From Felis catus (taxonomy: Eukaryota), in the NCBI RefSeq assembly GCF_018350175.1, contig NC_058368.1, forward strand, positions 26,910,001-26,974,000: a stretch of 64,000 nucleotides of DNA. Direction: 5' to 3'. A program made the position numbers and the translations under genes. The notes beneath the pieces are model-generated. The model was not told where the DNA came from and did not search any database. It was given only the letters and a program-made list of their open reading frames with translations. This document shows, piece by piece, positions 2,710 to 64,000 of this stretch (the first letter of the stretch is position 1; every line of letters starts with the position of its first letter).

Positions 2710-2760
<51 letters not shown>

Positions 2761-14949: not shown

Positions 14950-15465
14950 GTAATGATAATAACTATCGAATGAATGACTTCATATTCTGTACAAGGCACT
15001 GTAGGAAGTCTTTGTATAAAGTATAGGGAAAAAAGAAAAACTCAATTGTTAAGAGCTTTAACTTTGAAGTTATATAAGCCTGAGTTCAAATACATGTTTT
15101 ACTAGATTAGTTCCAAACTATCACTTACAGGTGGTGTAACTTTGGGCAAATATCTTACATTCATTAAGTCTCAATTTTAAATGTGTAGGGTGGGAATAAT
15201 AATAGGATTTACTTCATGGACTTGTTGTAGAATTAAATTAGATAATGTATATAAAGTCTTTAGAGATTAAAATTAAGTATTTAATATATTTGACTACTGT
15301 TAATAAAATTAGTACTAATTATTTCATAAATTTCTCAGTTTATAAATAAGATTACCAAAGCAATGAGAAAGTAGATAAAGTCAAATAACTAATAAGGTCA
15401 GAATTGGGATTTGAACCTAACCTTTGATCTGTTTTTACTCCAAAGCTCCTATCTCTCTATTACAT
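14950..15465. mobile_element. MIR (+, ~15045-15300) nested between two halves of an oppositely oriented MIR
   Basis: Core 'gtgtaactttgggcaaatatcttacattcattaagtctcaatttt...tgggaataataatagg'; outer halves 'caaggcactgtagg' and 'cagaattgggatttgaacct'. Confidence 0.7.
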
Positions 15466-26530: not shown

Positions 26531-27188
26531 GCATGTTGCCAGGGTGTGGCTCACAAGCCATCTTGTGTACGACCGAGGGCACGCTGGCTGGTAGAGAACT
26601 CAGATGACCCAGCACGCTGAGTCCTTCCGGGGAAGTGTTGGGGACGACACCTCCAACCCCTTCTTCTCCACTGTGTGTAGCATGAAATGAACGTTCGTTC
26701 TCTCCTCACTGAACGCTGGCTCTCCTCACTAAGAAAAGTGTTCCCCTTTCCCTCCTTTTCTTTGTAAAGAAGGTAAAAGTTGGCCTCTCAGGTAGATCAG
26801 ATTGAGGATGGACCAGAGAGTTGTCAGCCGAGCAGAGGAGAGGGTTATTTCACAGCCCTGTGGAGGTTTTCCTCAATTCTTATTTGATTATGCTTCCATG
26901 TAAGGTAATTTAACTTTCGTTCCAGAAAGGTTTTTTTTTTTTTTGAATGTCAAAGTAGATTACTGTGAAGGCAATTATTTCTACTGAATATTTTTTTAAA
27001 TACCAATAGTAAAGTGACTTGGAATGTACTAGTAAGAAACAAACACAGCCATTTAAAAAAATCTTGCAATCTTCATGACAAGTAACAAAGGGTTTTTAAA
27101 ATTTATGTCTTATTTATATTGTGTGCACGTATTCAATGTGCATAATTAAGGATCCTCTGAAAAACCTGTAAAAAAGAGAAAATTAAAT

Positions 27189-27205
27189 CCCAGTAGATGG
27201 CACTG
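27189..27205 (+). promoter_or_regulatory. Candidate CTCF site
   Basis: CCCAGTAGATGGCACTG fits the CTCF core CCASYAGRKGGCRS; motif match only. Confidence 0.45.
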
Positions 27206-30200: not shown

Positions 30201-30962
30201 CAGCATACATAGAAAGGATGTCGAGGATGATGATTTGGTCCCTAAACTAGTGCCCATATCAAATGTGTGCAGTCATTTGATTCTAGCACCACTAAGTAAA
30301 GACACTCTACAACTACTATATGAGCAATGCCTTCGGTTCAAATCTGGTCTAGCTAATTGGATTACTGACTGTTTCCTGCCACATCTAAGAAAAGTAGCCA
30401 CTGTGTCCACAGCCATTCTCACACCCTTCCCTTCATTATTACTGTTCCCCAACTCATTTACTGCCCAATCTAGCTTGTGTGTTTCACACTTTTCCAAAGC
30501 TCAATATAGCACACAAATGTCTTAGACCTTCCATTTGCCATTAGCATAAACAGAGAACATTCATAGCAGACTCTCAATTGTAAGTCTTGTGTGTCCTCGT
30601 ATCAGTTTCTGATTTCTGGACAGCCCTGAAGATTTTAGCAGTCAACATATCACATACTTTTGTAATGAAATGAAAGGTTAGACGTATACTTTTTTAGGCC
30701 CTTCATTTATTGGATTTTTCAGGTTATAGCTGAGTCTATTAGAGAGGTAGTATGTAGGGGAGCTGCTGAACAGAGGTAGCAACCTGGTAGGAGAATGATA
30801 GGATGGAGAGTGGTACTGGAAACTGGCATCACAAGGGTCACTAAATGAAACAGAAAAGTAGCAATACAGAATAGTTTTGTGGGTTGAACAGCGGTCTGGA
30901 CTGCAAGGACATTGGGACTCAGTAATTAACTCTTGAGTCCTGCTGATAGAATAGTCATAATA

Positions 30963-30994: not shown

Positions 30995-31757
30995 ACAACT
31001 ATTTATGAAGCACTTGTTGTGGGCCAGGGACAGAGTTAAGTGCTGAGACCCAGAGGGAAGAAAATAGATAAGCTTCTTGATGCTTCTTGACATGCTCACA
31101 GACCCGGCACGGTTACTGCTATGAGGTTCCTGCAGCATCAGTTGAGAAGACCACAGGGCAGAGACTATGCAGGTCTGGATTCCCCTCCAGCTGCGCTGCT
31201 GACTTGCTGAGGGGTCTTGGATAAGGCATTTAACCTCTTTGTCTCACTTTCTGCCTTCATACAAGGAGGCTAACAGTAAAGCTGCCCTCTCTAGCTTCCT
31301 CACAATGTCGGTGCGATAGACAAACGAGATAATCGATATGAGAATGCTTTGAAAATTGTAGAGTACCCATTTTATTTTCACCTTTCTATACACAGAAATA
31401 ATAATTTCCACCTATTCACCTCACATGGATGCTGTCGCTTCTTGGCATTTATTGAACAACAATGCTCTCTCTCTGATTTACAAATAGAATTAGACAGAGT
31501 TCCTGCCCTGTGATTTTAAACTAGGCAGACATGCATGATAAAAAGATGCGAAAACATTCAAGATAGACAATGTTGTGTGATGATCATTAATGTGTTTATA
31601 AAGGGCCAATGTGGTTCTTAGATGGAAAAATGCTATCAGCATTTTTCATAGTCCTTGGGATATTTGCTTACTGCAAAAATATAATCCCAATAATATAAAC
31701 CAAGAGGAAAGGTACGGGAGGATTGAAAAGAAATAAAGTTGTTTTAAAAGAAGGGGA

Positions 31758-42270: not shown

Positions 42271-44234
42271 CAAGTAGAAGTTTTAAACATATAGGTGTTC
42301 TACATAACAAAAAAGCACCTGGCTTCTTAAGAAGACTGTAAACTGAGGGACAGAGAAGAAGTTATTTAAAAGGACCCCCACTAGAGAACACACTGGCAGC
42401 ACCCAAATAAATCCATTTTAATTGTCACTTTATTTCAACTACATTTTAAAGCTGTGATATCATGAGTGGAGAGGGAAGCAGCTCATACAAGAGCCTGAGT
42501 TCAAAGAAATTGAAATTTAGCGTGGAATGTAAAACTGAGGGCTTTTACTTCTAAGAGGATGGTTGTGGAAATACCAAGGGTGAAGGACGTGGGTTTGGTG
42601 CTACGGCAGAAATAGTCTGGGGTGACTTTGCATTGGTCAGTGTCCATGAAGTAATGCTCTTTATAAGAGAAAAGCTTGTACCCGACAAGCTAGTAGAAAT
42701 GTGCATTTCTCTTAAAAGTTTTTACTTTTTTCCTGTCCTTCTGTTCTAGAAGGGACATTATAAATTGCTAATGAACAGTGACTTTCACATGTTAAGAGAT
42801 TAGATTCCCCCAGGACTAAAATAAAGTGTGCTTTAGCCTTCTTACACACAGGATATCCCATTGGGTTCCCTGCAGAGTGCTCTCTTCTTGCACCCTTTGG
42901 TAAGGCTGCACAATGGGTCACTATTGTCTGTAGTCTTTTTTTTACATTGGGTCTCTGGCAGCCAGAGGGGAAAATAGTCACACACAGGGAAATGGTGCAA
43001 GTTAAAATCAAGTAAGCCTAGTGGGGTGGTAATGACTTTCCCATCATCCAAGTCTTTGCCTTCAGGATATGTGAAGCTAAAAAACAATGTCACTCATTCA
43101 ACGTTTATAGAAAACACACAATGTACGAGGTACTGTGCGAAGTACTGGAGGGCATGCGAAAGTATGCAAAACACAATCCCTGCGTGGAAGAATCCCGCCA
43201 GGAAGGGTATTTTCAAGTATTACTCAGACCTTATGATCCTTCAAGAAATTCTTGGGTGAATAAAATTGCACTTCTAATTTAAAATAAGCAAGAACTGGAA
43301 AAGCAAGAAATGGAAAAGACGCTATGTCTTTTAGGAAGAAGGTATGTAAATGTGTCTAAAATTTTTATTTCTAAGGTATACACAACGTGGCTTGGATGAA
43401 TGAAGGAGTATGGGAGTTAACAGGCCAAGAGCGGCGCCAGGCTGGCCACAAGGGCCCCTTCTTGGCCGAGCCTGACTTCAAAAAGGCGCTGCTCTGATCC
43501 TGCACAGTTAGCTGAATCCGAACAAAGAGGCGACCGGCACTTTTACCTGGGAAGTGGATTAACTTTGAGGAAAAGTGGCCTCCGAGGAGGAAAAGAGGCA
43601 GCATTCTACCTGGAGTAAGAAGCGCCTTCCCTTCCCCCCGGACCGTGCAAGCTCACCTCCCTCCCGACTGACCTCACCCTTGCTCCCCGCCCCGCATCCC
43701 TACACTGGCGAGGCGGTGGGCCGCGCTCGGTGGGGTTCCACCGCCCACTCCACGCCCGCCGCGCTTGCACACGCCGACTCCCGCCGGTAGTCGGCCACGT
43801 GCGCCCGGGTCTCCGATCGGCCCACTAAGGGGCCGAGCGCCTCCAAGGTGGCAGTGGCAACCGTGGTGTCCCGATTTCTGTCCCTCCGCGCTGAGCCGAG
43901 AAGTCCGGACAGCGGCGGCGGTGGCGGGAGAGAGCGACTCGGCCCCTCCCTAGAGGGGGCCGCGCGACCGAGGGCTACGGGCACCGCCTCTGCTGCATCC
44001 GTGGCTGCGCGCTCCGCTCGGCTCAGACCCGCTCGGATCCGGAGCCCGCGCGCGGCGCTGCCTTCCCTTCCCCCTCTGCCGCCGCCCCGCGGGCAGCTCC
44101 CCCCGGCGAGACGCACGTTCGATCCTCCTTCGCCGGATTTACGGATTTCCGGGGGCAAAGAATTTTGCCTCAGTCCCTACCAGCATCTCTTGGCCTCTCC
44201 CCCCCCCCCTCCTCGCGACTCCCCCACCCCGTGG

Positions 44235-44280
44235 GCGCGCGCGCGCGCACACACACACACACACTCACACACACTCACAC
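44235..44280 (+). repeat. (GC)7(AC)8 plus imperfect CA repeat in the promoter
   Basis: gcgcgcgcgcgcgc acacacacacacacac tcacacacactcacac. Confidence 0.95.
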
Positions 44281-44299
44281 TCGCAGGCGCGCGTGCGCA

Positions 44300-44600
44300 C
44301 GCCCGCGCGCCCCGAGCCGCGGAGTCTCCAGCAGATCCCACTCTCTCGGGCGCCGCTACTCACACAGGCTTCCAGTCGCCACGGGGCGTCCTCTGTCTGC
44401 GGCAGCAGCGGCGGAGGCAGCACAGGGAACCGCAGCTGCAGCCGGGCCGCGTCTTGCAGCTTCGTGTCCGGGACGGAGTCCGGGAGAAGCGGACGAGGAG
44501 GACGACAAGGCGAGGAGGAGCCGCGCCGCGCCCAGCGCCCGGCTCCCGGCTCCCGGCTCCGCGCGGCGGGCTGCCCCCGCTCCCGGTATCGCGGATCCAG
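44300..44600 (+). other. Non-coding first exon (5' UTR); start approximate
   Basis: Strong donor CAG|GTAAGC at 44600/44601 in the island centre; no ATG in 44300-44600; G-rich sequence follows, as is typical of intron 1. Confidence 0.75.
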
Positions 44601-47600
44601 GTAAGCAAGCAGCTCCGGGCCCCGCAGCATCCCTGGGGTGTCCGGGCTCGGTGCCGGGATTCCCCGGTCCCGCCCCCGCCATGGCCCCGGGACGGAGGCT
44701 TGGAGGGGAGTGGGCTCCCGGGAGGGGGAGGGGAATAGAGCTAGAGGTGAGGCTGGTGGGGAGGGGTACGTGGAAGCGTGGAGGCTTCCGCGCAGCTCCC
44801 CGCGCCTTTCCCCGCTCTACACCAGCTCCAGCCCTGTCACTTTTGCGAGCCTGGAGGTGCCCGGCGCTCCAGACAGCTGTGTCCTGCTCTCCCCGCCGCC
44901 GCCGGCCCGTGTTGGCTCTGGGCTCCGAGCCCGCCGTGCGCTTCCCACCTCCCCTGCACCTTGGACAGCGCACCCAGCCGCCCGCCGCCCCCTGCGCGGC
45001 ACCCGGGACGGAGCCCTGCTCGCGCAGCCCTCCCGCTACCCTCTTCTTGTCAGGTTGTCACCCTCTCGCCCTGCACCACTTGTCCTCTCTGTCTTGGCGG
45101 ACTCCGCTGTGGTGCGGGCCGGAAACTTTACTCCCTTTCTCGTCTGCGCTAGGTACTGTTGTTATTTTGTGACTGTCCCCTTACACGGGGAACCCGGACA
45201 CCTTGGACGTGTCTTCTTCGGCGGGAGCAGGTCCTGGCCCGCCGAGTCGAAGGCAAAAGAGGCACTGGGCAGCTGGACTCGGCGGCTGCCAGGGTGCAGA
45301 GTCCGCGCCTCAGGTCCTGGACGCCTGCCGCCTCTCCGCCTCCCTGCCTCTCTGGACTCGACACGTGCGCGCCTCCCACGGACGCGGCCCCTCCCCGACC
45401 ACCCCACGTCCTCCCCCTGCACGGCCACAGCCACCCCATAGGTTGGACACCCGGAGTTCGCGGGTCCTGATTGGCTGAAGGCGTAACCCCGCCTCCTTCC
45501 CGGAGGGGGTGGTTCTGGAGTGTTGTGGTTGTCATCCCGCGGCGCGCACATGGGGAAAGTGGGGTCGACAGGTGGGGAAGCCCGGGTGGGTAGGATCCCC
45601 GTGTCCCACGCTTCTCCTTCCGAATACACTCCTGCTCTTCTCCTTTTCTCTCAACATTTTGGTCCTGTAAGTAAAAAACAAAACAAAAAAACAAAAACAA
45701 AAACTGGCTTGAAACCCTACTTTTATCAGTATTGCATTTGTTTGGTGTAGAGATTTGGAAAGCATATCTAGAAGAATGAGGGAAACAAATGCATGTGGGG
45801 ACGGTTCGTGGCAGACTGGGCTGCGGTTTGAGTCCAGTAGTTTGGAGAAAGTAATGGGAGGCTAAGAGATCTGAAGATGGAGAAAGTGGGAGGGAAATTG
45901 TTTCTTGGATAAAGGAAGACGAAGGTGGGTGAACTTGGGAAGCTAAGGGGAAAAAAAACAACTGGGTCATTTATGGGGTGACATGTGAAGGAGAAACCCA
46001 TACGGGCACTCCCGGGAGGTGAGTGGGTTCTGCTGAAGAAGGCTCCGTTCCAGAAACGGGTAATTTTCGATAATATTTAGTTCATTATTAGCACACTTTG
46101 TTTCTGTTTTGCTGGCGTTGTCCTTTTGATAGGAGACTTTATAGTAATGACGTCAAGCCATGTAATGGATTTTGCTTATTCCCGTTTTGTTGTAATATAT
46201 AGATTTCCAAGTGGCAATGAATTTCAAAAAGTGAACTTAAAAGCTCCTTTAGAGGGATGCACTAAATAGTTAAGGCAAAGTGCTTTTGAAATATTGTGAA
46301 GGAAGACGGATGAGCATTGCATAAAATCCAAAGATTGTTCTGGCGTTATTTAGGTCCTTTGCAGCAATACATACATACATACACACACACATATATATAT
46401 GTATGTATAAATTATGTATAAATGATACTGATTTCTCTTTATTTCAAAACGTGATTGCCTCTAGCATTTTCAAGCTTTGATTCCTTCAGGCCGTTTTGAT
46501 GTTGTGTCTGTACATCTAAGAACATTGTAATTCTTATCTTTAGAAGCCTTGTCAATGCAAAACAAACAGCAACTGATGCAAGTTAATGTTGACAACTTTA
46601 TATTGAGTACACTGTGTGTTATTTTATTTGCAAGCTAGTGAAATATGCAAGAGTAACATAGCATGACTGTTATTCCCCAGGGACCCATATCAAAACAAAG
46701 TGGGGAATCACATGAGGCTATTCCAAGGAGAACAGTTCAATTATTTTTAAAATGAATGTATTTTAAGATTCTTGGGTGTAAGCAGCAACAGTATTTTCCC
46801 ATTTCAATTATTATCTTTGTACGCAGTGGTAGCACATAAAAACTCAGTAAGTCCTACAGCATGTTAAATATGTTAGGTAATTCCAAAGTAGATAGATAGT
46901 GAAGGTTTTCCTTTTGATATTATTTGTATACAAGTAGACAAAATTGATTTTATGATTGTAGGACTTTGTATGGAAGGGACAGATTTGATACATCTGGCAA
47001 ACTGGAAATTATTGCGATTGTTGAAAAAATAGGTCTTACTATGTTTTTGTATCTCTAGGTCATACTTTGATTTGCCTTCAAGGGATTTAGATTCTAGTTT
47101 TTAGCCTATCAAAGTTAGATGGCTTTTGAGGTAGGTAGAAGATGAATGTATATAGTCGCACATATGTATATCTGCAAAATATATGTATGTATAGACCCAC
47201 ACAGCTATATATGTATACACGTCATTTTGGGGTACATTCAGTGTATTTATTTATATATGTGTTATTGTCATTCTTAAATTTTTTCTCATTTCTTCTTGTC
47301 CAAAAGGTGGCCCTGTTTTAAACTGTAGAAAGCATTATTACCAGTAGAATTGGCCAATAGATCATGGAAACAGACAATAGTATTTTGTTGCTTGGCAACC
47401 ACCTACTGTGAATGAAAAACAAAGCAGTGACAGCTGCTTCCACATCCTGATACCCATACTGTAGCTCAAGCATTGAAGCCCTCCAAGTGAGACAGATCTA
47501 AGTTTCATTTGAGTCAGGTGAAGCTCTTTCTTTTGGGGGATGTTTTTAAAAAGAGTATTTACATTTTTTTTTGTCATAAGAATCACATTGTTACTGTGGG

Positions 47601-49425
47601 ATGAAATGAAGCATCTAATTTCAGTTGCCCTCTTAATCCTAGTATAAACTGAAAGATGCAAGATAGGGTGACTTGTTTAGACCCTTCTCATTCTTCCCTT
47701 TATAGTCATTAGACACTGTAAGCACATTTTCTGCTGCTGTCAGATGCTTTTGGGGTTTTACAAAAACTTGAGTTCTCCGTGACACCTAAATAGATAGCTG
47801 GATTTCACTGCTAGCAGGGAATTAGAGATTTGTGCTCTGGCCTCATTCTTTAATTTCATGGGACACTGAGGCACAGTGAGGTCATGTGACTTGACCCTGG
47901 TGACAGAACCATCTCTAGAATGTCTTCCCTTGGGTCACATTTGGAAAGTTTCCCCCATTTCCTCCCTGGAATTATTCTTGTCCTTTAGTTACATAAAGTT
48001 TATAGAAAAAGATTTTTATCCTAATAAAGATACTTAGAAAATACAACAATATTTGGGAGTACAAATTCAGTATTGACACCAGGCTAGATTATGGTGTTAG
48101 AGGCATTGTATATCATGTGTTCTCCCTTCAATATAAAAAGTCCTAGGACTCCTGTCTTTTTCCCCCCAAGTGGGGAAGCCCCATCCCTTGCTTTGGTAAT
48201 TGTTTATACTTTTGGACAATCTTTAATGATCTATTATTCTCTGAGTGAATTTTAAACAGGGATGAGATTGAAGATTGTGTTGGTCAGCTTGTATACCAGC
48301 GAGAGTTTAAACATTACAGCTAATTAATCACTCGTTCTGGTCTTCTGTCTGCAACGTGGTGGAAATACTGTTGGTGTAGTGATTTGGGCTCTTTAAAGTA
48401 CACGGGGCAGACTGTGTCGCTACATAATATTCATTTCAGTCTTTTATCAAAGCTCTCTTGCCAAAGATGCTACCTGAAGCGTGTTGGTGGAGGACAAGTC
48501 GCGTATCTGTGGGAGATGTAATCTTGCCAGTGTTTCTTAACTCTAAGATGATAATGAATAAATTACTGGGTGGCAAACTTGGATCACAGATGCATCATTA
48601 GGCATTTCTTCTAAACTTAGGAAATGTATTGCCTGTGTGATACATTTTGAGGTTCCTTATGCTATTTTAAAGAATCTGTATTTCATTGTTTATTATTTAT
48701 GTCAAAGATAGGCATTTAACTTTAATGTAACAATTGCAGTAGAAAAACTTGAAGTGGTCTGGTTGGAGAAACAATAAAGTGACAGTATTAAGTACCATTG
48801 AAGAACCATTTTCACCAGAAAAGCATGCACTTTAGCAGATTTATAGGGGGGAATAAATTGATTTAGAGCATGTTTAACCTAGTTTTGGAAGCCTGCTATT
48901 AACTTGTTCTAGCTAGGAGAATTTTCAAGCAGAATAATAATTTGGCAGATTCAAGTGAACTTCACTGAATTTTTAAAACTATTTTCCACAGTCTGGTTAT
49001 GGTTTGTCCAGGGCAAATACTTGTTTCAGATCCTCTAGGATTAATCGAAATTTCAAGATTGCTATTATTATTTTTTAAAATTTCTGAGCCATTTTTCTTT
49101 GCAAGGTGGGATGTTAAATATTCTGTCATTCATGCATTTAATTTAACTCACTGGAATTTTGATATTTAACTTCCCTATCCTATCTTCAAGTACAAGATAA
49201 TGTGTGTGTATGTGAATGTGCCAACACACAATACTTAGATTTCCCCCTTTTGTTGTTTTCATCCTTGTAGTAGAACACTAAAAGACTTGATTTATGGTTT
49301 TTTTTCATACAGTAAAGAGAAACTTTAAACAAAAGATATTTATGTTTTCAATTTCCTTATGTCTGTTTCCGCTATTATAACATGTAAACTCTCACCCACA
49401 CTAATAGGATGATTGCTAAAAACAA

Positions 49426-49532
49426 GCATATATATGTGTATATATATATACATATGTATGTATACGTATATATACGTATATACATATATATATGTATATA
49501 TATATGTATATACGTATATATACGTATATATA
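49426..49532. repeat. Complex (TA)/(TG)/(CG) alternating purine-pyrimidine repeat
   Basis: 107 bp of unbroken R/Y alternation. Confidence 0.95.
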
Positions 49533-50109
49533 GGCAGCATCCCATTTGTTACCCTCCAAGCTAGCCAAGAAAGCATATTTTCTTATTTTTAGACAGACAT
49601 ATCCTTCCACACACATACCTACATAGACATTGAGTTTAAGGTCCTATAGACTCTTTTAAGAGTGGACAGGAATAGTGTGTTTATTGGGAGCTCTGTGCAT
49701 GGTAATGCTGGTATATTTAGTAAAGTGTATATATTCAGATTTTCAGAAATATAGTAGCATAGGAAGAATTTCATTGAATTATTCCCTTTGTAAGATTTTC
49801 AAATTATGCTGAGAACATAACCCACAACCCTTACGACAGTTCCCAGTACCTACAATAGAGCCTGGCATGTAGTAGACACACAGTACCTATTTTGTGGAAT
49901 ATTCACCTGCCCTCCTTTTGTATATATAATGTTGCAAACACTTCAGTCGGTGTCTGCATGAATAGTATAAGTTGAGAAGATGGAGAAGATATTACCGTAG
50001 TTTTCTAATTGTTTCTGGCACTATATTAAAAAAATAACTTAGCCAGTGAGATATTGTGGAATATACTTCTTGTCAGTGTAGAAAGTTATACCAGGAGTAT
50101 TGATTTTTC

Positions 50110-50440
50110 ACAAATACAGCCATCCTAAGTACAGAATAGCTCTTTAATAGCCCACAGCAGCAGAACAAAGGTTATGGCAGCTAGTCCAAAGGAATACTTT
50201 ATTTAGTTGGAGCTAGAGGGTGAGGTTTGCTAGCCCCAGTGTAATTATCCAGACTGGAATGTGGCCAAGGGGCTGTGGTTAACATCCCAAACAGTGGGAA
50301 AAAAGCCATGGATGAGGTCTTTAGTGACTGTGAGTGGCCAGACCTCTGCTATGGTCTCATTTGCAAGAGAGCACTTTTAGTAGCTTAAAAACCACAACAA
50401 CTGTTTTGCACTTAAGGGATTGAGCCCAGAGTTACCATTC
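50110..50440 (-). mobile_element. AmnSINE1-like (Deu-domain SINE) relic
   Basis: Minus strand reads 'gtgctctcttgcaaatgagaccatagcagaggtctggccactcacagtcactaaagac...ccatggcttttttccc...gggatgttaaccacagccccttggccacattccagtctggataattaca', colinear with the Deu-domain consensus as I recall it. Confidence 0.8.
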
Positions 50441-51058
50441 TAGATCCCAGGTACCAAATTTCTGGTCATTGGATGAAGTCATAATCCCAAGAGTTCAGTG
50501 ACATTGAAATAAGTCTCTCTTCTTTGTCCTGTGCCATCCTTGTGAAGTAGGTGGAGAGTGATAGTGTCTCTGGGGACAACCATGGCAGGATCACAAGGTA
50601 GGTAAAGTTTAACATGCTTCCAATTAGTCTCAAACATCCTTCAGCTTTCCACCACTACCCAGCTGTTTATCTCCGTTGTGGGGCTTAATTAATAGTTTCG
50701 TATCAGCAAAGCTCCAGCAGACTGCTTCCTGAGTTCCCTTTTTCTGTGAGAGAATTAGTCCTGCTATGTTTTTAAAAACCACCTCTCCCATGGCCGACCT
50801 CGGGTCACTCCAGGTTGGGGAGAGGGAGCTACCACATCTGTTGACCAGGGCCAAGTCATGTCCCCTCTTTGCCCATCTCTATCAAGACTCCCTTTTGGGG
50901 GAAAAATGTGTTAAGGTGTATACTGTTAAAAGGCTATAATACTTTCCTGGAGAGATTCCTGAGTATGTTACATACATTGGGTTCTAAATATAATTATGTA
51001 ATATAACATATATATTAATATAATTATGTGTTTAGTTTCACTAGTAGAATTGTACCTA

Positions 51059-51285
51059 TTTTTTTTTAATTTTTTTTTCAACGTTTTTATTTATTTTTGG
51101 GACAGAGAGAGAGACAGAGCATGAACAGGGTAGGGGCAGAGAGAGAGGGAGATACAGAATCGGAAACAGGCTCCAGGCTCCGAGCCATCAGCCCAGAGCC
51201 CGACGCGGGGCTCGAACTCACGGACCGCGAGATCCTGACCTGGCTGAAGTCGGACGCTTAACCGACTGCGCCACCCAGGCACCCC
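51059..51285 (-). mobile_element. Young feline Can-SINE (the only Can-SINE right of the CpG island)
   Basis: TSD TGTACCTA at 51051-51058 and 51286-51293. Confidence 0.97.
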
Positions 51286-51369
51286 TGTACCTACTGTTTT
51301 GATGCATAGGGAAGGTAGTTTTGTCCAGGGAACACTTAAATAATATCGTATTATTTTATTTTAGGATTA

Positions 51370-52515
51370 TTTCTTTAACAAACATTTATTGAGCATTTAC
51401 TGCATGAATGGTACAGTATTTGGCCCTGGGTATCATAAAGATTCTTAAGGCACAGTTCCTGCTCATAGACGAGAATATGCTGTTTGCAGGGAAGGGCACA
51501 AATGTGACTTTAAAGGTGACTATGCAGGAGGATCAGTAGGTCTGGAGAGCAGGACGGCAGACACACAATGGCGGACCTAGTGAAACCCATACAAGATTTT
51601 GAGCTTCATGATATTAGTTTCACAATCTGCCTCTTGAACACAATTCCATGCAATTCCTGCTATACTACTGATTCCTGGGTCCCACCCCAGACCCACTGTA
51701 CCAAAATCTTTAGGGACATGGCCTGTTGGAGCAGACATGGTCAGTGTCATACTTATTTGCCCAAATGCCCACTGCTCCAGTTCATGTCTGCAGAATGCTT
51801 CTGCAAGTACCTCTTGTTCTCTACGCGAAGGCTGTTTCTCCCACATGTAGGGCAGCGTGGTTGGGCAGTGAAGTTAATGGCCTCAGGACTGGACCTAGGC
51901 CAATGACAGAAGGGAGCTGGGAGGTAATACACTAGCATCTTGGACTTTCTGGTGTGATAACTGACACACGTTCCACACTGTGTCCCCAAATTGCCTAGTG
52001 AAACTGAACCTCAGTTGCCCATAATGGCAATCTGTTAGATATCTGTGCTTTGTTGACTGTCTCTCTTTCCTCTACCAGTGCTTCTAGGATCCTCTGCTAA
52101 ATAAATAACTTGTACTTACATTCTGTCTCAAGATCTGTTTCTGGAGGATCCCAACATAAGATACTGAAGAATCTGCTTTATTTAATTTTATTTTTTATTA
52201 ATGCCCCCACTGGTTTTTATAAAGAGGCAAATTTGGGAGACTTGGTCTCAGGTGATGATGGAGAGCCACTGAAGGATTAAGGCGTAGGCATTGTCATTTT
52301 TCATTTGCTTAGCAAGATCATGCTCGCAGGTGTGCGGCAAGTGGATTCATGGAGGAAGAGTCAGGAGCCTGGAGATCAGTTAGGAGGTGGCATTGCCCAG
52401 GCAAGCAATGGTCAGCACCAAAGTGAAGGTGGCAACTGTGGGGATGGAGGTGGGGGAAGGATGCAGGATGGGTTGTGATGGAAAGCTGTCTGGAAAGGTC
52501 AACAGGACATGGAGG
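51370..52515 (-). mobile_element. L2 interrupted by a MER5-like element, itself split by an LTR16-like LTR
   Basis: L2 tail 'aacaaacatttattgagcatttac'; L2 resumes at 'gatggagagccactgaaggatt'; MER5 halves at ~51640-51725 and ~52165-52245. Confidence 0.7.
51726..52163 (+). mobile_element. LTR16-like (ERVL) solo LTR
   Basis: 'ccaatgacagaagggagctgg...aaataaataacttgtactta...tgtctcaagatctgtttctggaggatcccaacataagata'. Confidence 0.8.
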
Positions 52516-52862
52516 CCTGCATGTGTGTGGTCACCTAGCTGACTGCCGTTCCAAAAATGAGATTTTAATCCTCTCTCTGCCATGCATCGTGGCCCTGCTT
52601 TGTGCATTAAGCTCAGCACCCCTGAAGGGCTGAGACTCCTGTGCCTTGCCTGTAATCTTGGTCAGGCTTTCTAGAGTTAAGGAGCACAAGTCTGGGAATA
52701 AATAAAAGAAGACATGAAGATAAATTGAAGAATATAAATAATTCACTACTAGATCATTAAAGGAAGAAAGTTATATTTTACAGGAAGGATTTGTGGAGTT
52801 ACAGACAAGGAGAGTTGCAGAGATGCTTGTGACGCACGTCCTTTTTCTGATGAATAGTGATT

Positions 52863-52886
52863 CCCCCCCCCCCCCCCCCCGCCCCC
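52863..52886 (+). repeat. Poly-C tract (C18 G C5)
   Basis: Direct observation. Confidence 0.9.
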
Positions 52887-53561
52887 GTGCTCTTGACTAA
52901 GAGGAGATTTTCATCCACCATCAGTTTCTGGAAGTCCTAGCCTGTACTTAGGTCTATTGTTTTTCCTGCTTCTCTGAGACCCTGTATTTTAGCTAAGTGA
53001 ATGAGTGGTAGCTGGGGTTGGGGTTGGTTCTTTTCTCTTGCTCTGTCAAAATGCCAGGCTTTTAGTTGCAGTTTCCCCTGCCAGCTCTTAGGCCACCAAC
53101 TCCCAAAGGAGACCAAAGGGTACAGAGGAGGGCAGGAGAAGGGAAGAGCAAATCCGTAAAAAGAGCTCTTCTGAATTAAATGCTTAATCATGAAATGAAC
53201 AGGTTAAAGCTTGTTAGTTGATATGAAATAAAAGGAGGCAGCCTTCTAATTGTCCCATGTGCAAATACTTACATTCTGGCTCTGTCTGTAGTCAGATATG
53301 CCAAGGCTGAATCGTCAAACAAGAGCAACTTTCCACCATCACCTTTCTGCAAAAGTAGCCTTGAGCCGATGACACGGAGAAGACTGCATTATAAGAAGCT
53401 GTAGAATGGGTCAGCAGAAAGCTTATTGGGCCTTGCTTAACAGGCAGAACAGAGTCAAGGCAGTGGCAATACGGGGCATGTGAGCATAAGGAGGCTGGAG
53501 AGACTGTGTTCAACACAATTCAAGGAGAGCAGCCTTAGAATATTATGAACGTATTTATGAT

Positions 53562-53780
53562 ATTTTTAAATGAAACTTTATTCGGACATCACTGTAGATT
53601 CCCATGCGGTTACAAGAAATAACCCAGAGAGATTCTGCGTACACTCTGCTCATTTCCCCCCAATGATAATATCTGGCAAACCTATAGCACAATATCATAA
53701 CCAGGATATTGGTTGATAGAGTCCGTCATATCTTCTTCATATTTCCCCAGCTTTACTCGTAATCATTCGGGTGTATGTGC
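53562..53780 (-). mobile_element. Old L1 (L1MB7/8-like) 3' end
   Basis: 'aagaaataacccagagagattc...ttccccccaatgataatatctggcaaacctatagcacaatatcataaccaggatattg'. Confidence 0.75.
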
Positions 53781-54131
53781 CAGGTTTTTTCTATTCAGTA
53801 CTCAGGGGATTTTTTTTTTTTTTTTACTTTTCAAGGAGTCTTTTTCATTCTAAAATTTTGAAAAAAATTCGCTTGTTGGACTTGTGCTGGCTTAGCTGTA
53901 ACTGAAGAAAGGGTAATGTAGAATAGATTCCTTAACCCCCTTTCAAGTCTGGGATTCTGCAGAGTGGAATCAAGGGCCACCTAACATGGCAGGAAGGTCA
54001 GTAGGCCATGGTATAGCTTCCACTTTATTACTAGGTAACCACTTTATTACTGGCGCCTTTCTATGGCAATACACAAACCTTTTAAAAGTATGTCTATTGC
54101 AAAAGAAGATCCTATTGTAACTCATCTTTCT

Positions 54132-54632
54132 TGTACCAGAGTTTCTGTCCTTTCCTTCTGGCATTTCTTGCCCTCCCCTTTTCCTCTTTGGGTCGGAGGG
54201 GGCTCACCCCTTCAGGTTGTGCTCCTAGATTCCTGAGTCAGCTGGCCTGCTGGCTTCAGCCTGTGGGAGGCACTGGTAAGAGAGGGCAGGGAGAAGGGCA
54301 AGACCAAGGCATTTTTGTCTTTTCTCTAGCTTCGTGCAGCATCCCTGGCAGTGAGACTCCCTCCTCTGTAGCACCACTCGTGCTTGACACACTGGCTCTG
54401 GTGCTAGCTGCTCACAAGTGACCTTGGCCCATGGACCCCAGAGACATACCCTCCTGCCATTGCCTCTTCAGCCTTAGGGAGGTAGCAGCCTCCTGCTCTG
54501 GCTGATCTCTGGATTGCCTTGCTATCCTGTTAGGTTCTCTGCTCCACCATCACCTGAGTAACCAAGTCCCTATATTAGATTTCCTTTGTAAAAAATGCTT
54601 GAAGAGATTTCTGTTTTCCTAGTTAGATATTC
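54132..54632 (+). mobile_element. LTR33-like (ERVL) solo LTR
   Basis: 'cagcctgtgggaggcactgg...cttcagccttagggaggtagcagcctcctgct...tttctgttttcct'. Confidence 0.7.
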
Positions 54633-56689
54633 TGCAGTTCCTCAAAGCATGGAAATGGCATAAATCTGAAGAGGTTTTCTGTTTCTGACATTCTGGCGTA
54701 TTCCAAGGGAAAAATCTTGCGAACTCTAGTCAGGGCAGAATTTGTAACTTGTAATCTCACCTCTCCCACCTAGAATCCCAGGCTCTTTACTGACTATTCA
54801 CCTGCTTCCAGTCTTTGGTTTTCCAACCTGATTTCCCTTTGTCTAATATATTTGGTAATTTTTCAGCCTCCCCTAGTGTCTTTGTTATTTTGTCCTTGGG
54901 CCGCTCTTTTACTAATCTTCCCTATCTTATTTTCTGCTAGCGGTTCTTACTGACCTCATCTCCATGTGTAATACCCTTATGCCCATGTTAACATATTGGT
55001 CTCATGACTCGCTCCTGAATGTTCTTTGGTTTATGGGGCATACATCTGCTACATTAGGATTTGGTTTTGCTGTCACTTCACTTTCTTGCATGAGGATGCT
55101 GTTTATTTGTATTACAGGGGTCCTCCGCCTCTTCTCCTGTAAAAGTATATGTGACTCTATAACAAAAACAATGGTAAGAATTTGAATAAGAATGTCTTTG
55201 TCAGAAGGTAATAGGACTCCGTAGAATCTTCAGGTATAAAGCATATTTAGAAGCCATGTCATTGAAAGCAAAGCTGGGAACCACCATGATGGCCACACAT
55301 ACTACCTTAAGGAAGGGACATGAAAGAGAAACAGTATGCTTAGGGAAGGTGTTGGGATGGTAAGGTTGACCACTCAGGTTCCTCCCCCGGTTGGAGAGAA
55401 GTCTTATTGGTTGCTACCATATTGGTCTCATAGTTGGTCACATTGAGCAACTTCGTCTTTTCTCCAGGCGGGTCCCCAGGTGAGCACAGGGAACTGGGAG
55501 TTGGAGCAAGGAAAATGCTTTCAAGCTATCTCCAACTAAGATGTGTAAAAGGTCACACAAATAACCCAATTGCAGGTGCCCCATCTTCCAAGGCCAGGAA
55601 TAGTACCCTTAGGCACTGCAGCACACACAGGGGATACTCTTTAAATGGATAGCCATGCAAACCACTACTGGGACTGTGGATTAGGGTCGGGGAAAATCCA
55701 AAGCTTTGGCTGAAGAAGAATTTAAATATTGAAAAGTAGCCTGTGGCACGAGCTCTGGATGTGTTCAGGTCCTGATGTTCTTCTGTCCTTGTGGTGGACA
55801 CAGGGCTGGGGAGTGTTTTGCAGCTAGTGCACACAGTTATGAACAGATGGATCTCTTTGGAAGCTGGAAGGCCACTTGCTTGCCTCTGCTCTCCATAATG
55901 ATCAGAAGTGGTGAGCGTTGGGCAGGAGAATTGTAGATTAGGCGGCTCTGGGCAAGCTGACAATGGAAAAGAAATAAGCTTATTTTAAATGGGCATAAGC
56001 TTTGAAGGCAAGTAATAAAGACATATTTCAGCCTCATGGACAAATTAGGGTTCTAGTTAATACAAGTGCAAGATCGGAAAAAAATAAATCACTTGCTCAT
56101 CTATAATCGCTAAAGAACAGTTTGTTTAGTAACAAAGCACCAATCATGCCTGCTCTTACGCGAGTTTCTCCTCTATTTCTCTTTTTCCTACATCTCTCAG
56201 AACTGGTTGAGTTCAGGGTCCTTTTTCCCCTGGGAGTACTCTATACAGTTTTATTCTGGAAAGTGGAGCCTATGTGAGAGCCGCCAACAGTTTCCCAAGA
56301 CATCCTTCTGAATCCTGGTCTTTACCCACCTCGGTTCCATCTTTCTGTAAATATATAATCCCTGCTTCTTTCCTCATTACTCAGTAATGTGCTGTGGCAT
56401 GAGGAGAGAGTTTTTAAATGGAATTTTCTTGGGCATTAGGAACTTCAATCTATCAAGAAGCACAAAGCAGGCACTGTAGAAGTGAGTTGTTTTCTGTGCA
56501 TTGGTTGTGCACTCTATTATGTTGAGTTGGCCCTGAGTAGTCTCTGATTTTTCTCATCTAGTTATTAAAAGAATAATGTTGGTAGATATATATTTAAATC
56601 TCACATAATATTGTGACCTAGCTTGGTACTCATTCTGTAGTAAAGATTTAATGTTTTTGGAGGAAAGCATGCTGCATATTCCTTCTGCC

Positions 56690-57590
56690 CAATGAATAGG
56701 CACTTACTGTGCCAAGTTCATGCTAGGTGCTGGAAATACAGCAGTGAACAAAAATGATCACTGTTCCTGTCCTTCTGGGAGCCCCCAGTTTACCGGAAAG
56801 GACATTAAGTAACCCCCAAATAATTCTGTAATTGGAACTCTTGACAAGAACTTGGAAAAGACCAGGTTTCTCTGAAAGGGTATAGAGAGGATGAAGTAGT
56901 CAGAGAAGGCTTATAGGGGAAAATAATTTACAAATGAAGATCTGAAGAATGATTGGGGCTATCCAGCTGGGGAGTACCATTTGCGAAGCCCTCACCTGAG
57001 AAAGATCTTGGGTTTTAGAGCCATTGAAAGATACTCGGGTTGGTGCAGTGCATTGAGTGAGGGTGGACTGTACCTGGGGGGGAGGCCGCTGAGATGTGGC
57101 TTAGGGCCTGGTTATGCCACACCTGCTAAGCCATGCTGAGGACTTTGGATTTTATCCTAAGTGCAATGGGAAGCCATTGAGAAGTTTTTGGATTTTTTTT
57201 TGTTTGTTTTTTGTTTTTTTTTTTCTTTTTTAAAGTTGAGATGAAATTCACATAACACAAACTGTGTGAAAGTGAATAACTCAATGGTATTTAGTACATT
57301 CACAATATTGTCCAACTACCATTGGTATGTCTGTTCTAAAACATTTTCATCGCCCCAAATGGAAACGCCATTCCCATTAAGCAGTCATCGAAGAGTTTTA
57401 CAAGGAGTGATGTCGTGTTACCTGTAGTATGTAAGATCTTTCTGGCAAGTTCTGGAGAAGGGATTGGAGAGGGGAAGAGTGGAAGCAAGACAGCAGACTT
57501 GGAAGTAGTGGTCAAGTTCAGAGACAGATGATGGTGATGGCTTCCTGGACGAGGGACAAGATTAGTGAAGAGAAGAGTGGAATGATCCAA
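56690..57590 (-). mobile_element. L2 fragment interrupted by an L1MB-like 3' end (~57200-57388)
   Basis: 'gcacttactgtgccaag...ctaggtgctggaaatacagcagtgaacaaaa' and 'ggactttggattttatcctaagtgcaatgggaagccattga'; L1 part 'gaaattcacataaca...tttagtacattcacaat'. Confidence 0.85.
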
Positions 57591-57657
57591 TATGGAGTTA
57601 TATAATCAAGTTTGATTATCTGTGTAAGTGACTTAGTCACTGTTTAACTATCTACAT

Positions 57658-57812
57658 AACTGTTTCTCAAAGGATAATTCATCCCCTATTCAGATCTAGG
57701 TAGTCTGCTTGTTAAAATTACAGGTACGTAAGCCCACCTCAAGGTACTGATGCACATGGACTAAAGAGGGACTTTAAGGGATTCTTCTCGGAACTGAGGT
57801 TTGAGAACCATT
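57658..57812. mobile_element. MER5-like remnant
   Basis: Termini 'tgtttctcaaag' and 'tgaggtttgagaacca'. Confidence 0.6.
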
Positions 57813-59179
57813 TATTGTTATTTGTCATTCTTTCTCATTCTGATGCCCTTTAAGATTGCAGGCTGTCAACAGTCCATCAAGGTGGGATGAATTAGAATGA
57901 GACACAGAATAAACAAATGGATAACCTAGTGTACGCTTGTAATTTTGAGTGGGATGGATGCTTTTTGGAGATGAATCTTTAACTTGATCTTAAAGACAAG
58001 TATGTAATACAGACAGTTCTATGGGTGGTGTTTATTTTTGATTCTTTTCTTCTTGGAGTATTGTGCCTCTCCCAGAATTAAATGGTGACTGACTGAGAAC
58101 AATGATATTGTTCTCAGTGTAGGTACAGTGTAGGTACAGTGTAGTAATTTATGGTAAGAGACACATACAACTGCTGGAAATTAACATATGAAACCAACCA
58201 TCCTGGTATTTTTTGCGGTTACCTTGTAGCTACAGGATTCCTATTAAAGACATGTTCACTCCAATTAACTGAATTTAGAAGCCAGAGTTTTTTGAGACTT
58301 TATAGTCAGAAAATCCTACAAGCTTTGGTAAAAATCAACCAATCAACAAATCAAGATTTTGTCTTTGACTTCTGGTTTCTGTTTGCCGTCGGTAGGTTTT
58401 TCTAAGCCATTACTACCTTCTTAGAGCTGTTAACTTGCAGCCAGAGTCTACGACATTCAGATGTTACTGTCCCGTTCAAATAATTCCCTCCCCCACCACA
58501 ATTTCGCTAACATGTTTGGTTAAATTATAATTTTAGAACTGAAAGATATTACAGAGAATTTAGTTTTCTGTTGTTGTTGTTGTTGTTGTTGTTGTTGAAA
58601 CTATTACCTTTGGAGATCTTAAAGTAAGTGAAAGAAGACTTCTACTAAGGGAGTGGCGTTGGGTCCTTGGGCATTAGGGTCCCTGAGGAAAGGGTGTGGG
58701 TATCCAGCAGCAGTCAAGGGTTAAGCCCTCTATTTTACCCAGCATAACAGCCCACCAAAGTAGTTGTAAGTGGCCTCAGTGGTACCTGCTCTTCCTGCAA
58801 GTAGCTGGTGTCTCTTGGCATCCTTGCAAGAGATCCCTTCTTCCCTCCCCCACTAGGACTTCCTCTGTTTGAGTATGAAGTGCTCAGCTTCTACAAGATG
58901 TTTCATTTTGATTAATATTATTTCCACTCTTCTGGAAAGACACTTGGGCACCTCTGGCTGTGTTTCTTTTTCAGCATGTACAAATTCGGATCTTAAAGTG
59001 GTTTCATTGCTTCATCCTAGAGTTTTATAATGAAATAATATTTTGAGTGCCTGATGGGTTTTGATCTTTTTCCCTGGACCACTTAGGTTTGGAGAGGGAT
59101 CTGAAGAAAAGCGGTTCATTTATTTTCCACCAAAGATAAACAGAATCGGTAAATAGCCAGCTTTTTTCAAAGCTTAGTT

Positions 59180-60100
59180 TTTCTGTTCCACAAAAATGCA
59201 TGTTGTTGTGTAAGAGCATACACTATAGAAGAATACAAAAAGGAAAGTAAAATTCCTCTGAAATACTAGAGTTAGCCATTGTTGACATTTTTGTAAAATT
59301 CTTCCAAGTATAATTCTCTATCATCTCTATTTATGTGTGTCTGTGTATATTCTATGTACAGATGAAGTTCTCAGTAAATGGGATTTTGCTGTATGTGTTA
59401 TTCTGTAGTCTATGTTTTTCTAATAATGTGTGGTTGGCAACTGTCCATGCCAATAAATATATGTTATCTTTTTAATAATTGAATACTCTTATTGGATGCT
59501 TTTCATGTAAGCAATACAAATCCCAGGGCAAAGTAGCTTAAATAATAAGAACATAGTGAAAATCCAGTGGGTAAGGGCTTCAGGCATAATTTAATCGGGA
59601 CTTAGGATTTCTCTCCTTTATAGTTTTCTTTTGCTTACTCTTTTTCATGCTCCTCATGGTAGCAAAATCGCTGCAGCTCCAGGGGCTCATTATCCAGAGA
59701 AAGAGAGCCTCTGCCAGTCACTGAACTAAAATCCTGGGCTTCTTCTGCCTGGATCATCTTAGGTAATGTGACCAAGGGAATGCCATTATTCTGATTGTTT
59801 CAGATCTGGGTAACAGTTTATGCTAATCCCATCCAAAATTTGTGAATAAGGAACTCAGAGTTCTGCTGGAAAAGAAGGTGAAACAACTTGCAAAGGAGGC
59901 AGCTAATGGTTTCTGTTAGAGTTTACTCTGGGCTTACTGATAGACATTTAAGTTGTTCCCAGTGTTTCAGTCTAAACACTATTGCTGCCCTAAGCTTGCT
60001 TGTATATATACTTTATTCTTTTGCAGTAATCTCATTTGGATAAATTCTTATTAGAGGAATTTCTGGGTCAAAAGATATGCCCATTTTACATTTTTTAATT
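59180..60100 (-). mobile_element. L1ME-like fragment interrupted by an MLT1-like LTR (~59487-59920)
   Basis: L1 'ggataaattcttattagaggaatttctgggtcaaaag'; MLT1 'ctcctcatggtagcaaaatcgctgcagctccagg'. Confidence 0.6.
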
Positions 60101-60859
60101 GACATAAACCATCCAAGCTGGAAAACCATACTCTTGCCAATTATATTTTGAAATCCCTCAACTGCCTGTTGAGAAGCTGTTGTTTGTTTGCTTTTTTTGT
60201 GTGTGGTTTTGTTTTGTGTTGGTTTTTGGTTTTGTTTTGTTTTTTTGTTTTTTGTTTTTAGCTTCTGAACTGAAGCAGAATTTCAGGCGTCACAATTTCT
60301 CCAAGCAAGACAAACTTGACCTGAGATAAGTTGAGGTTAATCAAAGCTTCCGTGTATAAGATGTTTCACCAGGAAGGCAAAGAGGGAAGGATGGAGAGGA
60401 ATACATTCTTCCAGCTGCAGGCCTCGTTTTTGGTGGGCGATGGCTCAGGAATTGACTGGGTGCCCCTGAGTGCCACCCTGTGTCTTCTCAGTGGCATGTG
60501 CTCTCCAGTCACTCTGCATTGTCTACCTCTTCATTCCCGTGTCTGGAAAGTGCTGGCGGATGGTGGCCATTCATGCAGTTAGTCTGCACTTTCTATTGTA
60601 CCTCTGAAGTTCTTGAACTTAGTAGAAAAAGCTAACGCAGAAATCAGTGATCTCTGAGATGGTGGGACCTTGGTCATTGTTTTGAGGAAATGAACGGGGC
60701 AGCTCATGGGTGACACACTTCCAGGGAACCAATGACAGATGTGATTTGTTAGGATGGCCTGTATTCGTGTGAATGAGAAGGACATTTGAGTGGAAACTGA
60801 GCAGGAGATCTCAGAGTTACAGTGAATGTCCCTTTGAGTATTTTCTGGCACAGTTGTAG

Positions 60860-61385
60860 ATGCCATCCTGTTTAATCCTCATAATAACCTTTTTTCTGTC
60901 AACAGTAAGAGGAAACCAAAACCCAGGAAGATTAACCTGTCCACTGTCATAGCTAGTATGCGGAAGAAGCAAGAATTTTGAACCTTTTATCCCACCACAT
61001 TTTGCTCTATAAGGGTCCCTCTCTCCCAAATAGAAATTATTAATAACAACTGGCTTTGTTTTATTTTATGTAAAAGAAGGAATATAGTGGTTAGTTCTAA
61101 AATTATGATGGCATTAAAGAGATTCACCTGAAATTTTTAAATGATGAAAATCAACCCAAAGTGCAAATGAACTAGATGAGACGTGCAACCTAGAAAATAA
61201 GGAATTTGGATCAATAGTGACAAAGGGAACAGGCTCACTTGTGGGCACTGAGAGTTGGGACTTTCTTTCATGAGCTTGAAACTTGAGGAAAGGGGCCAAA
61301 TGGTAAAAATAGATAAGATTAAGTGCATGGTATTATGTGAGCATGTTCTAAAGCTGTGAATATGCTAAAGAAAGAAATTATTATT
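60860..61385. mobile_element. Two MIR remnants (~60860-60985 minus, ~61170-61385 plus)
   Basis: 'tttaatcctcataataacct...gaggaaaccaaaacccagg' and 'aaatggtaaaaatag...tgtgagcatgttctaaagctgt...ttattatt'. Confidence 0.55.
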
Positions 61386-64000
61386 GTTAAATTGGAAAGG
61401 TGTATCACGGAAGCCTATTTACATGACAGAATTTTATTACAAAGTAGAGAAGTGATAGAATTTTAGAGATGTGTGAGCTTGGCTGCTCTGTTTTTTGGGC
61501 TCAGACTGCTAGATGGACATGAATCAATGAAGTCAAACACCATCCTGATCAACAAGAAGAAAAAAAAGGCAACTTATGTTTTTAAAAAGCAAAAATACGT
61601 TTCCACTAAAAAAAACCAAAAGACTGTTAGGGTGTATGCAGCATGTTTAGTAGAGAAAAGCAACAGCTTAAATTCACAGGAATGAAATGTAGCACAGGGT
61701 CAGTTCTTCTGTCACTTCAAAGGAGGAAGAGTTCCTTTTGGGCAGGGGCCAAAAGGAGAGCTCCACCTTGTGCAGTCTCTCACCACCCTCCGCCTCTCTA
61801 ATTGCCAAATGCCAGGGGGAGCTGGAGGGCACTGACAGATTGAGTGGTCTTGGTGAGTCTTGTGTTGCATCTGGCAACAAGTGTATTGGTCTCCTTGGGC
61901 TCCTGGCGGCTGCTATGCACTGCCCGTCGTTTGTGGTGTCTTCCAGTGGACAGCCAATTAAGAGCCATGGGGCAGAGGACCGGGCTTTGGCAAATGGCCA
62001 GCTGTATATGGCAGACCCTGCTCGCTGTAAGTGCTTTGGTGGGAACCGGGCACGTTCTTTCCCACTGATGCTGTAATGAACCGATGACAGAATACCTGCT
62101 ATAGTGTCTCCTTCATCACCTTCCCTGGGAATTGACTCCATTGCCCGATTGCACTGATCATGAAAAACTTAAAGTGTGCAGTCTACACTTCTCTCTCCTT
62201 GGCTCGATGAGATTGCTGCTTGCCCTATTTGGCAGTCTCGAGAGTAGCTGTGAGCACCAGTGAGGTTATTGGCTGATGAGTTAAACAGAAGCTGGATAAA
62301 GTGTGGCTCCCTGCATAGTCAGGGCAGAGCTTCTAGTCCCAGGGTTAAAACAACACGGAGACAGCAACTGAAAATGTCACTGAGCAGTACACCATGAATA
62401 GCCTTTGATGCCCAATGGGGCCATCCATGCCTTGGTGCTGAAGTGCTGCTGCAGACTTCCAAAGCTCCAAATTTGTGCTCAAGTTTCTTTAGTCTCAAAA
62501 TCTTAGCGTGAAATATTTAGTACCCTAGGAAAGCTAAATTAATGGTGAGTCAAAGTAATTAAGGCAAAGTAAATAATCTCCAAGGTTCTCATTCCCCGTG
62601 AAACTAATTTCATATCTTATCCTTCATGTGTTAAAAATAGTTCTCTGCTAATTCAAGATGCCCGTGCTCTGTGTTAGTGAAGTGCACTTCAGTTCTATTG
62701 AAAGGATGCAGATTAGGGAGTTATTTTCAATTGGGCATTTTTTTTTTTTTAAAAAAGAGAGACACTCATTTTGGCACCACGAGAGTGTGAATCTCTTTGG
62801 GTGAACTGAGAGTTGGATACAGCTGTAGCCGGGCGGATGATGGGCCAGCTAGCTTACGATGACTTGCAGCTGGGACAGCCTCTTCATCCTTCTAGTGAGA
62901 ACTCTCAGTTCCCATCCTTCCATTTGATGATGAGATTAGTTTAACTCCTTTGCAGGATTTTGACTGGCCAGAGCTTGTCCTTGTCTGTGACTACACGCGT
63001 AGGAAGTAGATCTGGGTAGGTTTTCTACATGATGGGAACATTGGGTCTTGAACATAATTTGAGAGTTATTTGTCACCTGAAAATAATCAGGACATATAAA
63101 TAAGGGGACGCTTGTGAGCTTATGGGTTTGTAGACTCCAGTGTAACCAAGCTGATCTTTCTACATTTGAGCCATTCCGGTGATAATGCCCCATTGTCCCA
63201 GGGCCTGAGAACACATGGTACTTTGGAGTCAGTGCATGGCTATGATACTGTGGCTTCCTCAAGCTAATGAAACTGCTTCAGAATTTATTATTGTTACAGC
63301 GGCGGTCTTGATCAAATGTGAGAATTCTTTTCTCTACGATCGGAGAGTATTTTGGTTAGAACGAACAGAGGTGGTTGAAGAGATGTTGAGCAAGCAGTCC
63401 TCAGTTACCTACAGCTGAAATATGCCATCGTTATCTTCTTGCTCACCTTCAGAATTCCTCAGTTATCTTTTTGTCTTCAAAGAGATGCCTTAGCTCTTCA
63501 GCACATCATGGGCCTGTTCTTCCAGAGAAATGCAGTTTTGCTTTTAATATGTTTTGAGATGGCAACCTGGGAGTGGAATATGCAGTACTCTGCTTACATC
63601 ACAGAGTGGAGTCTGTATCTCGCCACACATCCATGCGGAAAAATGCGCATAATTAATAGAAGGAGAATCATATGTAAAGTGATTCTCTTATGTTTGATAT
63701 TTGGTTTTAGTGTCATAAGAACATTTCTGTGGACAGTGAAGTGTCCCTTTTGCTAATTTTTTATTTCTCTTTCTGAAAAAAATACCAGAATTAAGTTGAG
63801 CATAGGTGCGTGGCATGTATGGATAATATTTTTACTGTATGTGAAGCCATCATACTATGGACATCATGGCTTTTTAGTATTTTATCATAATCATTCCATT
63901 TATAGAGTACCTAACAAAGTGCAAAGCATCAGCTCATTTTTTTGATCATCATGACTTCTGAATGAGCAGGGTAACCATTTATTATCCCTGTTTTGAAGGT

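Follow-up and report, generated by a model that had tools for sequence, protein, structure and literature searches.

AmnSINE1, the known element closest to the locus reported here, is described as 570 bp long and consists of a 5S head, a tRNA part, a Deu domain and a tail (PMC3234267). The human genome holds roughly 1,500 copies (PMC12015672), and 626 human copies overlap conserved elements (PMC5065162), which gives a conserved base rate of ~40% that is rough, since the two annotations differ. Enhancer and DNase states, above all those of ectoderm and fetal tissue, are enriched among copies of the family (PMC6904449), as are fetal H3K27ac and the binding of Sox2 (PMC13063735) and RELA (PMC12212084), and homeodomain/POU sites cluster in the Deu domain of conserved copies (PMC3234267). 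More than 95% of ancient TE insertions evolve neutrally (PMC3649676), and in Table S1 of PMC13063735 at most 58 entries name AmnSINE1 among TEs bound by Sox2/Brn2. Two of these 58, both Sox2-bound active enhancers, are 34.3% and 26.2% diverged from the consensus, so divergence from consensus decides neither way. AS021 (Satb2), AS071 (Fgf8) and AS3_9 (Wnt5a) are distal, deeply conserved and reporter-tested; in the case of AS3_9, the AmnSINE1 part alone had no reporter activity. The relic presented here probably derives from the same source family and retains a homeodomain core similar in kind to that described for AS021, but it is promoter-proximal and intronic.

The window, i.e. the whole 64,000-nt stretch of cat DNA analysed, consists of non-coding mammalian DNA that contains pieces of L1 as well as 21 copies of a tRNA-SINE, a young one that we take to be of the felid Can-SINE type. 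A preliminary description had reported an AmnSINE1-like relic of ~330 bp on its minus strand on the basis of eleven quoted sequence blocks. Ten of the eleven are present exactly and colinearly over 50360-50112, while the eleventh had been misquoted by one letter: its leading g is absent from the window, and a match to its final 8 letters lies at 50247-50240. Together the blocks cover 249 bp, or ~280 bp when weak edges are included, and the boundaries as first given are too wide. Homology perhaps extends out to ~50378, where 9 of 18 positions are identical by eye to the paper-printed SINE2-2_CM sequence and seven of the nine differences are transitions (both hand counts). A second copy was not found in the window. 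The relic divides into two parts:

50237..50378, minus strand: 5′ half of the Deu-domain relic, the tested part (L004 alignment and by-eye comparison with SINE2-2_CM)
50100..50236, minus strand: putative 3′ half of the relic (exact quoted blocks; presumed family match)

Reference copies were obtained by scanning metagenome contigs with a motif derived from paper-printed Deu sequences (bivalve, hagfish and SINE2-2_CM sequences in PMC4824008 and PMC5786205). Among the nine loci recovered, eight resemble BivaMD-SINE1 and are bivalve-type; L004 alone is 5S-headed. Its 5S-like head (Rfam E=0.037; 22.5 bits, under the gathering score of 38) is followed by 124 nt of the Deu domain, which in full spans ~330 bp in vertebrates, after which the contig ends. 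The best alignment of L004 to the window falls on the relic, with 81 of 116 columns identical over 50360-50237, seed included (z 7.5-10.2), and none of 6363 non-element tiles scored as high under any of the four scoring schemes. As the scan motif and the window have 19 letters in common, the fair test is confined to the 78 nt of L004 past the motif. This seed-free part gave the window's top score on both strands at the predicted place, equalled by 0 of 12742 other tiles; across the four scoring schemes, 0, 0, 0 and 15 of 6367 tiles and 0, 0, 0 and 4 of 1000 shuffles were as good. SINE2-2_CM (positions 137-258, from the supplement of PMC5786205) is likewise colinear with the relic by eye, from 50378 to ~50259. 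With an independent copy and paper-printed DeuSINE sequences agreeing over the 5′ half, sequence homology identifies the relic as a decayed Deu-domain SINE, as had been proposed. For the 3′ half, three of the quoted blocks occur letter for letter (50197-50192, 50159-50138 and 50124-50112), and their presumed agreement with the Deu-domain/AmnSINE1 sequence (50197-50112) serves as a lead. The stretch from 50380 to 50440 found no support as part of the element.

Searches elsewhere added no further reference. Motif scans of viral sequences and prokaryote genomes returned no DeuSINE copy; one viral-scan match (L010), whose flanks do not look Deu-like by eye, was set aside as a chance hit. Similarly, blastn against plasmids and phages gave no match, and Rfam at the gathering threshold gave 0 hits over the whole window.

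The relic lies downstream of a promoter, in an intron with the following landmarks:

43500..45600, no strand assigned: CpG-island promoter of the host gene (GC 0.66-0.75 and CpG o/e 0.77-1.05 over 43501-45500)
44240..44600, plus strand: putative non-coding exon 1, start approximate, with donor GTAAGC at 44601
47812..47979, minus strand: MIR-like CORE-SINE fossil in the same intron (iterative nhmmer, three window seeds)
51068..51286, minus strand: young felid tRNA-SINE, the only one in 44.6-64 kb and ~670 bp from the relic

There is no ATG in 44201-44600, and exon 1 ends in a canonical donor. No coding exon that would name the host gene was recognised in the window, and the gene was placed by its neighbours. 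Cat ATP7B lies on the forward strand at A1:19.54-19.61 Mb (PMC10328163), and the reported A1 gene order is SOHLH2 .. ATP7B .. LACC1, CCDC122, ENOX1, DNAJC15 (PMC10969784). Scaling human coordinates by ~0.89, a factor taken from the SOHLH2-ATP7B gap, puts the promoter at ENOX1. Presumably ENOX1 has a non-coding first exon and, as expected, forward orientation, both of which fit the host gene. On the gene order and the scaled coordinates, the host gene is probably ENOX1. The relic most likely sits antisense to it in a long first intron, 5.5 kb in; the previously claimed ~5.5 kb from the promoter is borne out if measured from the donor of exon 1 at 44601. ENOX1 is ~574 kb in size, and a gene of that size is computed to hold an AmnSINE1 copy by chance in ~24% of cases. 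The naming of human ENOX1 among 1,416 AmnSINE1-containing loci in Table S1 of PMC12015672 is thus moderate support only. In the library searched, no paper was found that links ENOX1 to AmnSINE1 or to a conserved intronic enhancer of TE origin, and the published 124- and 626-locus lists may include the locus.

The intron had also been called SINE-depleted. This holds for young felid SINEs only, with 1 in the 19.4 kb of intron (44601-64000) against 20 in the 43.7 kb upstream (binomial p=0.005); a MIR-like fossil lies in the intron at 47812-47979. The scarcity is regional, running across the whole 19 kb, and is not specific to the relic; it points to constraint on the region or to biased insertion near the promoter, neither of them tied to the relic. 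The three seeds recovered six MIR-like fossils in the window, one of them in the intron of the relic. Their 15 pairs are 54-67% identical (median 63%), corresponding to a JC estimate of ~0.25 substitutions per site per copy. Between the relic and the fish-type copy L004 the total distance amounts to 0.39 if the seed is counted and to 0.49 if it is left out; as this includes the divergence of L004 itself, it is an upper bound on the decay of the relic. Neutrally evolving insertions that predate the therian split (~160 My) are expected to show a distance of ~0.45-0.6. Measured against this expectation, the relic's distance is somewhat low for an insertion of that presumed age. The estimate is nevertheless ambiguous, as the relic was noticed for being well kept.

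The relic had been read as a constrained cis-regulatory element on the grounds that it is still recognisable. This step does not follow, since the six ordinary MIR-like fossils in the window are recognisable as well. Overall, the preliminary description is partly supported: the observation was largely right and the family probably right, with the enhancer role a candidate only. We consider it about an even chance that the relic persists as a passive fossil that decays at the background rate or close to it. In this reading a Deu-domain SINE of great age, most likely AmnSINE1, landed in antisense orientation in the present intron 1, probably of ENOX1, and the copy, headless today, would no longer be capable of Pol III transcription or mobilisation. 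That it can still be recognised may be due to the unusual conservation across animals of the Deu domain used as reference, and to the fact that only better-preserved copies get noticed.

The motif content of the relic, scanned with TF motif consensuses, included two sites of potential interest:

50242..50247, no strand assigned: palindromic TAATTA homeodomain core, in 16% of 296-bp window tiles
50164..50170, plus strand: SOX-type site (AACAAWG class), in 19% of tiles

Single RUNX, TEAD and NFI-half motifs are also present, and each TF motif in the relic occurs in 15-39% of same-sized window tiles. Consensus sites for octamer, NF-kB, FOX, MEF2, AP-1, ETS and GATA are absent from the relic. As RNA, the relic is predicted to fold in an ordinary way (z -0.86, equalled by 23 of 100 shuffles). 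That no motif stands out and that the fold is ordinary speaks for the passive fossil, as do the six fossil SINEs that are recognisable in the window with no functional claim attached, the rough count by which more than half of human copies lie outside the conserved set, the neutral evolution reported for more than 95% of ancient TE insertions (PMC3649676), and the small number of Sox2/Brn2-bound entries naming AmnSINE1. Weighing against it are the length of the copy, ~250-280 bp compared with 61-65 bp for two chr13 AmnSINE1 fragments in Table S3 of PMC5065162, the distance of 0.39-0.49 to the fish-type copy, which is low for an old neutral insertion, the published enrichment of the family in enhancer and DNase states, and the scarcity of young SINEs in the intron. 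If the relic is passive, its identification amounts to routine repeat annotation. Relics of this sort number more than 1,000 in a mammalian genome, and this one has probably been annotated as a repeat already.

Alternatively, and as a tentative second reading, the relic may have been exapted as a cis-regulatory module in which selection kept the TAATTA core (50242) and the SOX site (50164). Homeodomain/POU and SOX factors would bind the retained Deu sites, and the module, together with flanking DNA, would enhance or boost, from within the intron, the host promoter 5.5-6 kb away or a gene lying farther off; embryonic neuro-ectoderm or epithelium would be the most plausible setting. Such a role would accord with the rough ~40% base rate of conserved human copies, with the family's enrichment in enhancer states, fetal H3K27ac and Sox2 and RELA binding, and with the clustering of homeodomain/POU sites in the Deu domain of conserved copies. 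The relic is also long and fairly well kept, and the two active-enhancer copies with divergences of 34.3% and 26.2% make its decay compatible with function. Against this, the motifs are common by chance, and the octamer and NF-kB consensus is gone. The AmnSINE1 part of the Wnt5a enhancer is inactive alone. In the 54-locus multi-TE table of PMC5065162 (54 of the 626 loci), the chr13 rows fall at 73.1 and 94.8 Mb, away from the ENOX1 position. A search of sequencing runs for ATAC libraries listed none, which counts neither for nor against a regulatory role. The version in which the relic is an intronic enhancer of ENOX1, derived from a SINE, under constraint throughout mammals and working through homeodomain and SOX sites, strikes us as rather unlikely. 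Were it true, the three distal AmnSINE1 enhancers would have a counterpart close to a promoter; were the relic functional, it would add one more to the short list of tested AmnSINE1 enhancers and provide a defined control element of ENOX1. Even then the concept would be unchanged, as hundreds of conserved copies and the enhancer enrichment of the family are already published.

Whether passive or exapted, the element carries its family label with some qualification. In common with AmnSINE1, the relic has Deu homology, a fragmentary central portion retained and ~30% decay, and its probable host gene is already listed as AmnSINE1-containing in human; it differs in having no detectable 5S head, tRNA-derived part or L2-type tail. 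At E-value thresholds Rfam gave no 5S match near the relic, whereas L004 gives one, and a search for the L004 head at the expected place was equalled by 473 of 3192 null tiles. A 5S-head remnant at ~50500-50440 was tempting but not significant. For the tRNA-derived segment, ARAGORN reported 0 genes, and the L004 linker, the test that also covers 50380-50440, was matched as well in 2917 of 3196 null tiles. An L2-type tail was sought by proxy, with a decayed CORE-SINE tail from the window, and 2539 of 3192 null tiles were as good. The source of the proxy is a long CORE-SINE fossil at 31143-31375, presumably MIR3-like, that has kept its 3′ tail. No exact repeat of at least 8 nt that could represent a target-site duplication exists between 49900-50115 and 50380-50700, as expected if duplications are erased at such age. 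Since truncation or decay would be expected to remove the 5S head, its absence leaves the AmnSINE1 label unproven and does not exclude it. The Deu-domain part of the original assignment therefore stands on homology, while the AmnSINE1-defining head and tail went undetected and the name is a matter of judgement; AmnSINE1 is very probably the family of the relic.

It is improbable that the relic is a Deu-domain copy of another family, either AmnSINE2 or an LmeSINE1-like element. AmnSINE2 carries a Deu domain, and the head and tail that separate AmnSINE1, AmnSINE2 and LmeSINE1 are the very parts undetected in the relic. Both DeuSINE and LmeSINE1b/c figure in Repbase as human repeats (PMC5753468), and among the old SINEs of mammals AmnSINE2 is an established subfamily (PMC6904449). 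Nevertheless, the relic matches the 5S-headed, vertebrate-type L004 past the seed, where the eight bivalve-type loci gave short chance-level matches (scores of 65-108 as compared to 190 for L004 in the same scheme), and it is AmnSINE1 with which human ENOX1 is listed (PMC12015672). Assignment to another family would alter the label and not the question of function, and its probability overlaps with those of the passive and the exapted relic. More broadly, the relic has 5′ Deu/Nin blocks in common with the SINE3-type L004, SINE2-2_CM, EbuSINE2 and BivaMD-SINE1, although the vertebrate DeuSINEs and BivaMD-SINE1 among these references retain a Pol III head, and bivalve copies have only the first ~60 nt in common with it.

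Chance resemblance, or descent from a module of another repeat such as MER6, is very improbable. In its favour, L004 used with nhmmer returned the relic as the top match, yet with E=0.074; blastn of the nine loci against the window did not report the relic, and profiles built from nine or eight loci missed it, probably because eight of the loci are bivalve-type and have only ~60 nt in common with it. One of the four scoring schemes, moreover, left 15 of 6367 tiles as good. However, the seed-free part ranked top at the predicted position and strand in three of the four schemes, and the relic is colinear with a second, paper-printed reference. MER6/MER6A, a SINE-containing MITE, resembles the relic insofar as a SINE conserved domain persists in mammals. 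It was rejected: its domain is V, not Deu, and it is reported from primates, bats and eulipotyphlans only (PMC6887750), i.e. from other orders, while no terminal inverted repeats surround the relic (49550-51050), where TIRs of 24 bp would be expected.

Least probable of all, with small odds, is that the antisense relic serves as a cassette exon in the 5′ leader of the host mRNA, itself non-coding, where it would tune translation or stability:

50120..50219, plus strand: candidate cryptic exon of 100 nt, with an AG just ahead of 50120, a weak pyrimidine tract and a GTGAGG donor at 50220

The AG and GT(G)AGG boundaries are present in host-gene sense and exon 1 of the host gene is non-coding, but the pyrimidine tract is short and purine-interrupted, and AG/GT site pairs of this type are common in introns.

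Several further observations were made in passing. Three non-repeat intronic stretches (48290-48345, 53160-53460 and 56020-56160) contain homeodomain/FOX/SOX-like words and resemble conserved non-coding blocks by eye; if real, they would be enhancer candidates equal to the relic. At 49426-49534 lies a self-complementary TA-rich repeat with spurious sub-threshold matches to several Rfam miRNA models; near the relic, Rfam at E-value thresholds returned just these low-complexity matches and chance ones. A GC/CA dinucleotide repeat occupies 44237-44280, at the probable transcription start within the CpG island. The region 27000-30500 is repeat-poor and AT-rich, with poly(A)-signal hexamers on both strands, and may mark where a non-coding transcript ends that lies upstream of the promoter or runs divergently from it. 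Decayed L1 ORF2 pieces lie on opposite strands at 1-4200 and 12000-15000, the former interrupted by a younger SINE at 2581-2830.

As to the reference loci, the L004 contig, although from a metagenome, is animal host DNA, as it contains a 5S-headed vertebrate-type DeuSINE. The Deu part of L004 has a perfect NF-kB-type 10-mer by eye, unlike the cat relic. The BivaMD-SINE1-like copies (L001-L003 and L005-L009) point to mollusc host DNA in those metagenome assemblies, and L006 and L009 each hold two copies in opposite orientation.
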